From assembly GCA_951406725.2 (NCBI GenBank), contig OX597816.1, positions 135,904,001 to 135,968,000 of the forward strand: 64,000 bases of DNA, read 5' to 3'. The notes under the pieces are model-generated. The model did not search any database. It worked only from the letters and a program-made list of their open reading frames with translations, and was not told the origin of the DNA. Every line of letters starts with the position of its first letter. The first letter of the stretch is position 1. The position numbers and the translations under genes are program-made. The stretch comes from Octopus vulgaris (taxonomy: Eukaryota). Of this stretch, positions 16,060 through 57,178 are shown one piece after another.

Positions 16060-16766
16060 CTGTCATTTAAAAAATGAAAGAAAGTATAATAATATTAATG
16101 AAATTATTGTATACAGTGCTCAGGTGCACCACAACTTGTCAAAAGTGCATATAAAACATATGCAGTAATGTACAAATGTCTGGAAAGTGAACAGTGTATG
16201 AGTCAGATACATGCTTGAGTGTGTATGGAGGGGAGAACATCAGGTGTAGTGTTGACGAATCTCAGGAAGCATGGAAGTTTTGAAGGATGCATGGAAGTAT
16301 GATGTTGTACCAGCCATACCTTTCCCTCAAGACATCATAATCCACATCATGAACTTCTGTTATTATTTTTAGGTAGTGTGTAGCATCAAGTAGTGAGTAA
16401 CAGAATGATGCTGGAGAAATATTTTGTAGTAATTAGTTACATCCATTTAACTTATAAAATTCAAATCCCAACAAGATCAACTTGCATTTCATTCTTTTGG
16501 GTTGGATAAAATAATCACCAGTGAAATACTAGTACTTTACACATGTATTTATATATATTATCTGAACTGTTTAAAATATATAAATAGACATGTCTAACAG
16601 CTGATCAATGCTACATCTGGATTTTCTTCTTGCCATTATATATATATATATATATATATATACATACATACATATACATACATACATATATATATATATA
16701 TATATATATATACGTTTATATATTTGTTGTGCAAGATTTTTTATGTGAAGTCATGTGTTGAAACAG

Positions 16767-16979
16767 ATATTGTTATATTTCGGAATGGTCATTTTGCCAG
16801 TTTAGCCAATAAAAACACACGCACTATATATTTGGTGTTATTTTGCTTCAGTGTTATTTATTTTTTACATTAATCTTAATCTTAATAAATAACACTGAAG
16901 CAAAATAACACCAAATATATAGTGCGTGTGTTTTTATTGGCTAAACTGGCAAAATGACCATTCCGAAATATAACAATAT
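16767..16979. repeat. Perfect 96-bp inverted repeat with 21-nt spacer, between (TA)n tracts
   Basis: 16767-16862 is the exact reverse complement of 16884-16979. Confidence 0.95.
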
Positions 16980-17639
16980 ATATATATATATATATATATA
17001 TATATATATATATATATATATATATATATATATATATATATTATGTGTGTGTGTCTTTGTGTCTGTGTTTGTCTCCCTGACATCGCTTGACAACTGATGT
17101 TGGTGTGTTTATGTCCCTGTAACTTAGTGGTTTGGCAAAAGAGACCAATAAAATAAGTACTAGGCTGGTTTACAAAGGGTCTCGATTTCTTTGACTAAAA
17201 ACCTTTCAAGGTAATGCTCCAGCTTGGCTGCAGTCAAATGACTGAAACAAGTAAAAGAATATGAGGTATTTTTAAAGTCTGAGTATAAGTATTGTCTAAA
17301 TTATAATGTTGGACATTTCATTTTTAATCTGGACTCAACCTCTTCTTTATAGAATGAAGTAAAGAAAATTACCCTACATGTAGTGTTACATACATTCATA
17401 TTCAGGGTCAGAACAATTTTTTGTATCTGGTAGTTAACTGAGTAAACTCACAGGTTTAGACTATTAGAGACATACTGCATGTAATCAAAGTATTATGGTT
17501 TATGATTACACAATACAAATGCAAAGTAACATACAAATGTACATGCCCCTTACAAAGTTATTGTTATTTGTATCAGTATAATGAGTTATTAAGGTGCTCG
17601 CATATAAAGATATAGTTATGTACAAAGCAATCTGTTTAC

Positions 17640-17720
17640 ATTTTAATGGCTTCTTCGTTTTTTCCCCATCTTGCATATGTTCTGCCAAGATTGTCTACAG
17701 CTCGCCCTTTGTCTTGTTTA
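17640..17720 (-). CDS. TTC25: TTC25/ODAD4 coding exon 8
   Basis: tgcag|T ... AT|gtaaac; 81 nt, phase 2-2; KQDKGRAVDNLGRTYARWGKNEEAIK (cf. SRALDNIGRVFAR). Frame not shown in the ORF track. Confidence 0.9.
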
Positions 17721-18983
17721 CTGCAAAAATATTGAAAAGAATTTCAAATCAAGTATCACTTTAAAAAAGACCTTCTCATACTCTTCCTTGAGCCAACAAA
17801 ATAAATATATAAACATGCATAGTTTTATTAATATTTAGCAGAAGCAACAGAGTGATGCAAAGACCAGGAGTTTTGTTGCGTTGGCATTTACTATACCTGT
17901 ACATAAAGGTGAGTGCTGCAAGGCTACAAACATTCAGATGCCTTTCCTGTTGCCAACTCTCACTAGCTTTTAGGAGAGGTAATAATCTCCTAGTTTATTG
18001 AACAATCAACACCTAGTCATGTTTATGACACTGTATCAATGAGCCTTTTATTTAAAAAGATTGAGCAGCTTGACAAATCACACCAAGAAGCGCAAACATG
18101 CTTTTGCAGTGGACTACAAGCAAACAGCACAGCTAGCGAAAGCCATCATATACAAGCAGTGAGCAAAGATATGTGAAAATGAGGGAAATGCACAATCATT
18201 CATGCAAACACACAGATGCACATATATGCATACACACACACATACACACATAAACATGCATGGATACATACATACATATATATATATATATATAAATATA
18301 TATACATACACATATATATATATATAAGTACATGTGTATGCATAGAATATATTAGAAATATTCCACATAAGTCATGAGATATGGAAAAATAAGAAGAAAA
18401 GATGTTTTTTCCTTTTATATTGTTGTGAATTTATTCCAAAGGATATTATTAAAGTCAAATCATGTCAAGATTACTAATTCCAAAGTATTCTCAAATCATT
18501 TCAAAATACCTAATTAAACATTTCAAAGTCCATAATTACAAATATACATCTAAATACATAATTTCCAACTGGTTTCAATTCTTACAGAATATATCCATTG
18601 CAATGTACGTCTGCAATTATATATATATATTTATATAGGAATAATGGGAATATGGGTAGCTCCAGTATAAGTAGTAATGATAATAAAATATATATATATC
18701 AGAAAATAATAAAATAATAAGATATATACATATATATATATATCAGAAAAATATAAGGTAAACCTTTACTGCAGTGAAACTAATCTGCACTCTATAGGAG
18801 CAAATAATATCATAAATCAAAGTAGAGGAGAAACTTTTATAGCTGAAATTCCTTTATCAAAATTCATATACACTATCAAAATACACATATGCAGAGTCAT
18901 CAAAATTTTTAGGTGTCAAGCATTCCAATATTACAAGTCAACAATGAAGTTAGATGAGCAGTGGTATATAATAGCATATATAT

Positions 18984-54870: not shown

Positions 54871-55514
54871 AATATAATATTGAAACATAATATTATTTCA
54901 AGTGATATCCTGGCTCCCAAAAACGACATTGTGCATGATCTTCATGGTACCATCATTCAACATGTACCAGTGCAATCTACATGGTAGAAATCAGTTCACA
55001 TTATATGCTACCAACTATCCAACTGATTTTAAAGTTTCTTTAGGATATTACTGTCCCTCCACACAGTTTGGGATAGCCCATTAATGTTTCCACAAAATCA
55101 GACACATCAAAGCTCTGCAATTGTACAAGACCAGCCATCAAATTTCTTATACCTCAGGGGATTGAGACACCACAACTGATTGGTTGTGCAAGAGAGATGT
55201 TTTCATGTTTACGTTCAGTGCATTCACCCCTCATCCTATCAGATATGCTATGGAACTTCAACTCCCATCACTTGGCAGTGACACTATCTTCTTTGACCAT
55301 CAACAAGCCTGAGAGATACTCCCTCAGAGTTGGTGGAACTGGACTGATACATTAATGTTTCCTTCATGGTCTGCTCTATGCTGTATACTCATGTACTGGG
55401 CCAAGCAAACAACTTTTACAAAGCACCAAACAGCTAAACAAGAAATGCTATCCACCCCCAAAGCTCTTGCTGAAAAAAGAAAACATTTTCTGTTAGAATT
55501 CCTTGTGTTTTATG

Positions 55515-56587
55515 TGTGGGATCTCAATTTGACTGACCATCCAAATGATTTTGAAGACTGCAGAATAAATGATAATCAGGTGGGGCACTGTCTGGCGAAT
55601 ATGGTGGGTGGGGCATTGTTTCCCATTCAAACTGCTCCAGCCTTTCAAATGTCATCCTCACTGTATGTAGCTGAGCATTATCCTGATGGAAGAACACCTT
55701 TTGTCTTGAAACCAAAGATGGTCATTTTTTCTTCTAGTGCTGATTTAAGCTGCTTGCAGTAGATCTCCTTTATTGTTTGGTTTGGGCTTAAAAGTGCAAA
55801 GTGGACTACACCTTTCATATCCCACTAAACAGATAACAACACCTTATGTGAGTAAAGACCTTCTTTAGCTTGGGGTGCTGGTATTTCACTTTTCCCTACT
55901 CACTGTCTTCGGTGCTTGACATTTTTATAGAGAACCCATTTCTCACCACCAGTCACTATTCGATCCAAGAAAGGTTCATTCATGAGATGTGACAGCAAAG
56001 AAGAGCACACATTCACTCTCTGTGCACGATTAGACTCAGGAAGTTTGTGAGGAACCCACTGACCCAATTTTCTGACTTTTCCGATAGCATGCAGGTTTTG
56101 ATAAATGGCTGAATGACCAAATCTAAGCTTTTCTGCTAGTTCCTCAACAGTTACAATGGGATTTTGTTTCACCAGGGTTTGCAGGATGTCCTTGCTGAGC
56201 TCTACAGATCTTCCAGGATGAGGCTCATCTTCTAGGCTGTAGTTTCTGACTCAGAATTTCTGGAATCACCGATGACACTGGCTTACACTTATTGTCCGAT
56301 CCCCATATACCACATTAATATTCCTCACACATACTGTTGCATTGTTGCTTTTATTGAATTCATAAAACAAAATATGCTGAATATGCTCCTTTGTCACTTT
56401 CATTACTACTTTGAAAAAATAACTGTTAAAATCGAACAGCACTCTTCAAAACTTGCACTAAGAATAAGGACAAGGTAAAATTACTACCTGCTTTTATAGC
56501 AAGTTGACGCAGGTAGTTTATCTGGTCTCCCTCCAACTTTTAGTTCATGCAATTGAAAAAACCCACATTATTTATGGGATGACATAA
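55515..56587 (-). mobile_element. Mariner transposon, one end truncated
   Basis: End ttatttatgggatgacataa plus TA; ATG at 56403; motifs KLGQWVPHKL, DRIVTGGEKWV, HQDNA, HPPYSPDSAPPDY. Confidence 0.9.
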
Positions 56588-57000
56588 TATATATATATAT
56601 ATATATAATTTAATGAACACAGTACAAAGATAAAAGCTACTAATAGTTTCATTCATTGGAGACATGAGTCTAAGCAAATTTTTATAACACACCTTGTGTC
56701 TCAGAGCAAAGTGATATTTATCTCCATGGATCTCTTGTAGTTGTGGCAGATACTGGTGTCATGCAAATGGCACGTAAAAGCACCGTTACACTCTCAGAGT
56801 GGGTGGCATTAGGAAAGGCATCCAGCTGTATAAACCATGCCAAATCAGACTGGTGTCTGGTGCAGCCTCCCAGCTTGCCAGCCATGGTCAAACTCATGGT
56901 AGCATGGACAATGGATGTTAAATGATGATGATGATGATGGAGTACTTTTTTGTTGATCTTACCTTAAAGGAAAAGTGAACTGTATATATATATATATATA

Positions 57001-57178
57001 GGGAGAATTCACAAAAAAAAACCAAAAGACGAAGACAAGTGGTGTAGACAACAAACAGATGTATTAGTATAATGCTCGGGAAGTGAAAAAGTCTAACATT
57101 TCGAGTCTACGCTCTTCCACAGAAAGAAAGAAATGAGAGAATATAAAGAATGTGTAGGGGCTAGCAATCTATCATGAT
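57001..57178 (-). mobile_element. (TA)n-inserted short repeat, probable Penelope pLTR fragment (copy 2)
   Basis: Same start gggagaattcacaaaa directly after (TA)n; CUGUGGA-AGAG(cguaga)CUC-GAAA remnant at 57091-57126. Confidence 0.55.

Follow-up and report, generated by a model that had tools for sequence, protein, structure and literature searches.

What gives rise to short inverted duplications that carry two hammerhead ribozyme motifs pointing outward from a common centre and that sit in microsatellite DNA? The 64,000-nucleotide stretch of Octopus vulgaris contig OX597816.1 analysed here (GenBank assembly GCA_951406725.2, positions 135,904,001 to 135,968,000 of the forward strand; called the window below) contains three such cassettes, A, B and C, and a ribozyme-less fold-back, D. 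We consider it very likely that each of these cassettes is an ordinary insertion of an endonuclease-bearing (EN+) Penelope-like element (PLE), probably of the Neptune type, in its most reduced form: a decaying stub of the element's tail end, of a kind already known as genomic debris, rather than part of a new self-silencing RNA system.

Anatomy of the cassettes

An inverted-repeat search and self-BLAST of the window recovered fold-backs A, B, C and D and a further one, E. The three fold-backs with outward hammerhead pairs that were reported in an earlier note, made from the sequence alone, are present, although their boundaries had been drawn too short: the arms of C extend over 42203-42538 rather than 42264-42477, and the tails had been missed. 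In general, A to D consist of two arms around a centre, flanked by (TA)n on both outer sides, and just one of the arms carries a tail (Table 1). This one-sided extension is found in all four cassettes, running for 142, 58, about 128, and 51 nt before the microsatellite, while the other arm stops at the microsatellite. The tails are mutually unrelated (z -1.0 to 0.1), and no notable open frame runs through the arm and tail of the cassettes. In cassette A, the layout suggests that the tail is part of the element. The arms of D are 100% identical over their outer 96 nt, with (TA)n flanks on both sides, and the fold-back at 16767 does have the layout of the hammerhead cassettes, as the earlier note had it.

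Of the eight outer ends of A to D, six lie no more than 5 bp from a run of at least four TA units, compared with 2.5% of the window at distances of up to 3 bp from such a run and 3.8% at up to 10 bp, in agreement with the association with (TA)n claimed earlier. The left end of B adjoins (TAA)15, and that of C adjoins a decayed CA/TA tract.

The arms of each cassette have diverged to different degrees. Alignment gives 6 substitutions in 121 columns, plus indels, for A; 7 substitutions in 86 columns for B; and 25 substitutions in 166 columns (19 transitions and 6 transversions) for C, the centre of which is flanked by 26 identical bases on each side. The right arm of B starts exactly at core position C3. 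The right arm of A also contains a 21-nt unit in tandem triplicate (26246-26308), directly downstream of the cleavage site, that is not found in the left arm.

A strict scan of the window for hammerheads, requiring the core, stem II, helix III, and a stem I of at least 3 bp, returned three sites, 26156-26116 (-), 42399-42446 (+), and 19063-18987 (-), compared with a mean of 0.15 and a maximum of 1 in 20 dinucleotide shuffles. None of the matches in shuffled sequence has a palindromic helix III, and the earlier description of minimal type I hammerheads with this feature is borne out. The C right-arm site (42399-42446) qualifies solely by virtue of G-U pairs, and its helix III palindrome is broken. 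None of the 107 Rfam matches at E<=1 is to a hammerhead family; minimal PLE hammerheads evidently fall outside the Rfam models, and the null does not show that they are absent. Five of the six arms of A, B and C have the exact core (CUGAUGA...GAAAC...GUH), the exception being the right arm of A, and the complete ribozyme, with core, helices I and II, and palindromic helix III, is kept only in the left arm of A. The cleavage site lies 36-94 nt from the short end. All six arms begin no more than about 30 nt upstream of the core, in what are three events, partly reader-selected, and paralogs also break elsewhere. The cassettes had been called independent, which is largely correct: B shows no relation to A or C, and A and C have a common ribozyme type (z 5-8 against 60 shuffles).

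Table 1. Positions of the cassettes and of other features in the window.
Feature	Position	Strand	Description
Cassette A with both arms and tail, (TA)n run at either end	26047..26479		short arm (-), spacer, long arm (+) with tail
A arms	26047-26169; 26184-26338	-; +	14-nt spacer 26170-26183
Hammerhead, A left arm	26116..26156	-	all parts intact: core, 4-bp stem I, stem II, palindromic helix III
Hammerhead, A right arm	26197..26240	+	core U4 to C, stem I broken
A one-sided tail	26339..26479	+	about 142 nt, ends at (TA)19
Cassette B	27017..27266		tail 27017-27074 (58 nt) and left arm (-), spacer, right arm (+)
B arms	27075-27160; 27180-27266	-; +	19-nt spacer 27161-27179
Hammerhead, B left arm	27110..27160	-	exact core, degraded stem II, interrupted stem I
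Hammerhead, B right arm	27180..27230	+	exact core, 8-bp stem II, 5' strand of stem I absent
Cassette C	42075..42538		tail, left arm (-), 2-nt spacer, right arm (+) entering (TA)n
C arms	42203-42368; 42371-42538	-; +	tail about 42075-42202 (about 128 nt)
Hammerhead, C left arm	42293..42340	-	stem II damaged at its base; core, stem I, and helix III intact
Hammerhead, C right arm	42399..42446	+	exact core; private changes in helix III palindrome and stem I
Other joints in family C	42123>42383, 42195>42460, 42281>42425, 42306>42426, 42315>42405, 42320>42425, 42356>42436		same-strand
Joint in family C	42373>42371		35 extra letters; left arm 35 letters longer than that in the window
Cassette D, ribozyme-less fold-back	16716..16979		96-nt arms, 21-nt centre, 51-nt one-sided tail 16716-16766
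Host gene ODAD4/TTC25	14459..31168 (approximate)	-	three exons matching solved axoneme chains
Single unpaired hammerhead	18987..19063	-	long stem II, decayed helix III; sense in ODAD4 intron
Fold-back E and adjacent tRNA-headed copy	37420..37990		tRNA match 37807-37877, homologous body
Decayed PLE 3' end, likely Neptune-type	47775..48335	+	frameshifted, stop-riddled GIY-YIG 47775-48068; presumed 3' UTR to (TA)13
Repeat R1, about 190 bp	48362..48554	-	3' end at (TA)n; minimal-hammerhead-like motif, A6 to U, without helix III
Repeat R2	57001..57176	-	second copy of R1, similar ends, same core variant

Paralogs of cassette C

Contigs from four DNA-type sequencing runs (three organism labels) were placed on C at a likeness of at least 80%, a comparison that covered family C only. 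Between 2,006 and 5,051 contigs were placed on the C stretch per run, counts that include a second repeat at about 42550-42745, and family C is high-copy. This second repeat, unclassified and also high-copy, adjoins the (TA)n run that the right arm of C enters, and its paralogs share a continuation beyond about 42740.

At the fold point of C (42369), 49, 37, 42, and 26 contigs in the four runs have loose ends with a common continuation (agreement 0.70-0.80). Because these loose ends share their continuation, the C arm is a truncated part of a longer element. The paralogs also contain same-strand joints in which the left side passes into the right arm elsewhere than at the window's own fold point, with at least 8 distinct joints among those listed (15 of 117 in one table and 12 of 45 in another; Table 1), and one of these, 42123>42383, was found in three of the four independent runs. 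Joints between opposite strands, such as 42278>42461, were dropped from the count, as several fall at mirror positions and represent mapping switches between the arms.

Family C has two alternative 3' ends, both supported by paralogs. At 42203, TA-rich loose ends of low agreement occur in 23, 26, and 13 contigs (listed for three of the four runs), and at 42081/42093 loose ends pile up in all four runs. Diverged contigs span the tail and the arm (for example, records 9 and 17), and the tail is therefore part of the element. Most paralogs differ from the window's C arms at many sites of each arm, including helix III and stems I and II, which fits independent decay of the two arms after insertion. 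No contig spans the whole C stretch or crosses its centre among the 32 of 16,179 pieces listed, an absence that carries no weight in either direction; contigs of repeats are short.

A palindrome that moved as a unit, of the MITE or fold-back type, would have a shared centre and both ends in common, and in family C the fold points vary and there are two ends. Since family C runs past the fold point and folds at other points as well, each insertion seems to form its palindrome anew rather than to copy it as a unit. The earlier proposal of a distinct population of ribozyme palindromes is thus not supported, since, in addition, the layout and the opposite-strand pairs have already been published.

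Origin of the cassettes

Insertions of EN+ PLEs, as described by Craig et al. (2021, PMC8557442), consist of an inverted 5'-truncated copy with a 30-40-bp extension, often at one end only, and target (TA)n; Arkhipova et al. (2013, PMC3846280) report a 31-bp tail on one inverted pseudo-long terminal repeat (pLTR) and head-to-head junctions with palindromes. The cassettes have inverted truncated copies, a palindrome or short spacer at the junction, a tail at one end, and (TA)n, as in those two accounts, and differ in that both copies are 90-300 nt long and without an open reading frame (ORF), and that the tails measure 51-142 rather than 30-40 nt. The truncated copies stand head to head, with the arms pointing outward, in microsatellite targets, and a minimal hammerhead near the 3' end is found in A, B and C and is absent from D. 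The link to Penelope-like elements that had been suggested is therefore supported by the layout, the tails, the (TA)n targets, and the minimal hammerheads. Membership in the PLEs, which we find most likely, rests on this anatomy and on the behaviour of the paralogs.

The ribozymes resemble the minimal hammerheads of PLEs catalogued by Cervera and de la Pena (2014, PMC4209133), who found opposite-strand pairs separated by about 100-700 bp and ascribed most motifs to truncated PLEs. Shared with that set are the CUGANGA core, a long stem II, a stem I of 3-4 bp, and the palindromic helix III, which in the published set also occurs with GUA sites; in contrast, the cores here are only 19-58 nt apart, the 3' side of stem II has a mismatched or extra base, and R1 and R2 carry U6. 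For Poseidon PAc of Anolis, Frangieh et al. (2024, PMC11167929) attribute the tail to a pair of reverse transcriptase (RT) start sites and report that both DNA strands are cut and extended. That element is comparable in that two RT starts define the short and the tailed end, AT-rich sites are cut, and hammerhead cleavage is unneeded for insertion in vitro. It belongs to a different clade, and the spacing of the two ends is much longer in the octopus.

The window contains, as had been noted, the relic of a GIY-YIG endonuclease at 47.9 kb, along with a single hammerhead and two repeats of about 190 bp. The frame of the relic at 47838-48038 matches the Pfam GIY-YIG model at E 0.0078, below the cut-off, and a degraded linker of the CX2-5CxxC type is visible; relatives of the relic have this linker and end in GIY-YIG, and a GIY-YIG domain with a CxxC-type linker is likewise a feature of EN+ PLEs (PMC3846280, PMC8557442). 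No RT is detectable upstream of the relic. A cluster member, P0019, is a 769-aa ORF in which RT motifs can be recognised by eye; it aligns with the relic at 41% over 66 aa, with a frameshift upstream. A word-index protein search with the 67-aa relic gave 7 candidates, none significant. The sequence suggests that the relic is likely a Neptune-type PLE, and Naiad endonucleases are reported to cluster with Neptune (PMC8557442). The earlier note had cast the relic as the likely driver of the cassettes, and we rejected it as the parent of the arms, with which it has no DNA similarity; the relic shows that elements of this kind were active here, not that it made the cassettes. Searches for related loci returned 0 of 27 viral stretches, 0 of 97 genome stretches, and 1 of 168 metagenome stretches. 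This one, L001, is a metagenome contig with a Neptune-like element in which, about 140 nt after the GIY-YIG stop, a decayed hammerhead of the same plan can be recognised by eye (1524-1575); it is a single, weak case in support of a PLE origin of the motifs.

Several observations weigh against this assignment. The tails exceed the published length, target-site duplications are unreadable inside the (TA)n flanks, and no link was found that would make the arms continuous with a PLE reading frame. The relic resembles none of the arms, the L001 hammerhead has a damaged core and escaped the motif scan, and motif scans of metagenome, viral, and genome contigs gave 0 matches in each of the three. Stem II departs from the published consensus in all six hammerheads through the mismatch or extra base on its 3' side. 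In family C, the shared sequence upstream of the fold point is visible for only about 30 letters, so that the parent could be non-autonomous, and some of the joints could be later deletions across the hairpin or misplacements at 80% likeness.

If the cassettes are PLE insertions, published PLE behaviour suggests that a PLE protein would cut the (TA)n tract and that RT would start at two sites, one on each DNA strand. Synthesis would stop early, often just upstream of the pLTR hammerhead, and the two stubs would meet head to head, either by the joining of two cDNAs or by a self-primed fold-back as proposed in PMC3846280, routes that our data do not separate. The outward hammerheads would then be passengers of the pLTR, and the arms would go on to decay independently, as is seen here. 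Where such an insertion is transcribed, as in the ODAD4 introns, the long hairpin is computed to bury the ribozyme and would be a likely substrate for ADAR, both of which we would regard as by-products and not as the reason for the structure.

The parent of the arms may have been different. They could stem from non-autonomous PLE derivatives without coding capacity, similar to retrozymes or SINEs (short interspersed nuclear elements), the ends of which were mobilised in trans and folded back at insertion, with a parent RNA devoid of an ORF. We judge this unlikely. It agrees with the occurrence of R1 and R2 as copies of about 190 bp with similar ends and a common core variant, with the lack of an ORF link in the arms, and with descriptions of such PLE derivatives (PMC8557442; Li et al. 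2026, 10.64898/2026.07.22.740005). Like the cassettes, the non-LTR retrozymes of Li et al. are short, non-coding, PLE-related repeats with type I hammerheads; they differ in being tandem, head-to-tail direct repeats with at least two consecutive hammerheads, whereas the cassettes are inverted single pairs. No tandem hammerhead arrays of the retrozyme type were found among 70 Tandem Repeats Finder rows or by self-BLAST of the window, which argues against that form of the parent, and, as the one-sided tail and the inversion are general to PLE insertions, only the parent would differ. The most remote alternative is that the fold-backs are artefacts of assembly or library construction, or late local inverted duplications unrelated to retrotransposition. 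The perfect identity of the D arms, the lack of a listed contig across C or its centre, and the presence of fold-backs in SINE and unclassified DNA of the window could be read in this way. Against it, A, B and C each show 5-15% divergence between their arms, along with indels, the ends fall at (TA)n and at family 3' ends, one-sided tails are unexpected in an artefact, and other head-to-head joints recur in independent runs.

It is also very improbable that the palindrome itself is the mobile unit and owes the persistence of its layout to muting of the ribozyme by the antisense arm within host introns. The sequestration anticipated in the earlier note is complete in folding calculations: full cassettes fold as single long hairpins (minimum free energy of -184 and -190 kcal/mol for A and C), in which ribozyme stems I and II have a pairing probability of 0.0, compared with 0.78-1.0 in the isolated left arm of A. 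This muting follows from the fold-back geometry, and in isolated C arms stem I forms poorly even without the antisense arm. The start of all six arms close to the core, the identical bases around the centre of C, and the intronic position of A, B and D would suit a muted mobile palindrome, as would the depletion of Xenopus retrozymes in introns (Li et al. 2026, 10.64898/2026.07.22.740005). However, fold points vary and many copies of family C continue past the centre, and five of the six ribozymes are damaged. The same gene also harbours an unpaired hammerhead in sense orientation and the ribozyme-less D, and selected self-muting is therefore not needed. Moreover, a single minimal hammerhead of S. 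mansoni did not cleave in vitro, and dimers cleaved at low levels (PMC4209133), and the hammerhead of an Anolis PLE needed the element's protein (PMC11167929). Self-muting is thus not a convincing reason for the tolerance of the cassettes in introns, and we return to PLE insertion as the preferred origin.

Host gene, RNA editing and neighbouring repeats

Three minus-strand exons of ODAD4/TTC25 match the solved axoneme chains in order (residues 84-132, 220-251, and 379-446). Cassettes A, B and D and the single hammerhead lie between ODAD4 exons, and C lies outside the gene. The hammerhead in the left arm of A is in sense orientation in the ODAD4 pre-mRNA. The single hammerhead at 18987-19063 has no inverted partner detectable by self-BLAST of the window.

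Formation of double-stranded RNA and A-to-I editing of the cassettes are plausible. Porath et al. (2017, PMC5625713) found lizard Penelope and palindromic frog Harbinger repeats to be heavily hyper-edited and octopus to give one of the two strongest hyper-editing signals. The cassettes resemble those substrates in being palindromic repeats probably related to Penelope, and octopus was left out of that repeat-class analysis. A bolder and rather doubtful extension is that two RT starts 50-140 nt apart (up to 4 times the published tail), one per strand, with synthesis ending preferentially just upstream of the hammerhead, mass-produce near-perfect short intronic hairpins that could be a main source of the very high non-coding A-to-I hyper-editing reported for octopus. 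Should the long tails and ribozyme-proximal fold points recur across the genome, thousands of such stubs would map where PLE reverse transcription starts and stops, a step still open in the published accounts (PMC8557442, PMC11167929), and would form a countable class of candidate ADAR substrates.

The inverted layout and the opposite-strand hammerhead pairs are already known (PMC4209133, PMC8557442, PMC3846280). The tails longer than 30-40 nt, the fold points near the ribozyme, and the stem II and U6 variants may be new, and the window contributes three or four PLE tail families that appear not to have been described, besides clearly illustrating the known type of insertion with inversion and tail. 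Octopus PLE hammerhead fold-backs are not described in the literature searched, a scope outside which Lunse et al. 2017 falls. Cephalopods do not appear in the searched supplement text of PMC4209133, where the word "octopus" has no match (one file being outside the search), and four short motif terms have none in the supplement of Craig et al. (PMC8557442). A 2026 repeat annotation of Octopus vulgaris lists Penelope-like families (PMC13282606), and its main text, apart from the supplement, has no match to hammerhead or ribozyme.

R1 and R2 form one family (82% identical). With similar 5' and 3' ends and a common U at core position 6, they are a candidate fixed-length, non-autonomous PLE derivative.

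The other fold-backs of the window, E, F, G, and H, were rejected as members of the same system: they have no hammerheads, E, G, and H look SINE-derived, and G is arranged tail to tail. The fold-back at 37420 (E) had been grouped with the cassettes; it is present, but the tRNA match and the homologous body suggest that it comes from a tRNA-headed SINE. At 37420-37990, repeat bodies stand head to head beside a copy that keeps its tRNA head, and both arms end in TA and CAA-type repeats; this is possibly a SINE inserted in PLE fashion.

Several further repeats were observed. A 44-nt inverted duplication lies at one end of a SINE-like repeat (35488-35583), and two members of that repeat family meet tail to tail in a trinucleotide tract (35720-36021); we presume this family to be a SINE. 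A large fold-back at 786-1292, with arms of about 250 nt that are near-identical outside internal microsatellites, lacks a hammerhead and (TA)n flanks and is possibly a young element or an assembly artefact. ORFs at 6417-7295, 50739-53397, 19859-20426, 55900-56250, and 10944-11664 resemble what we take to be reverse transcriptases of RTE-type long interspersed nuclear elements and mariner/Tc1 transposases.

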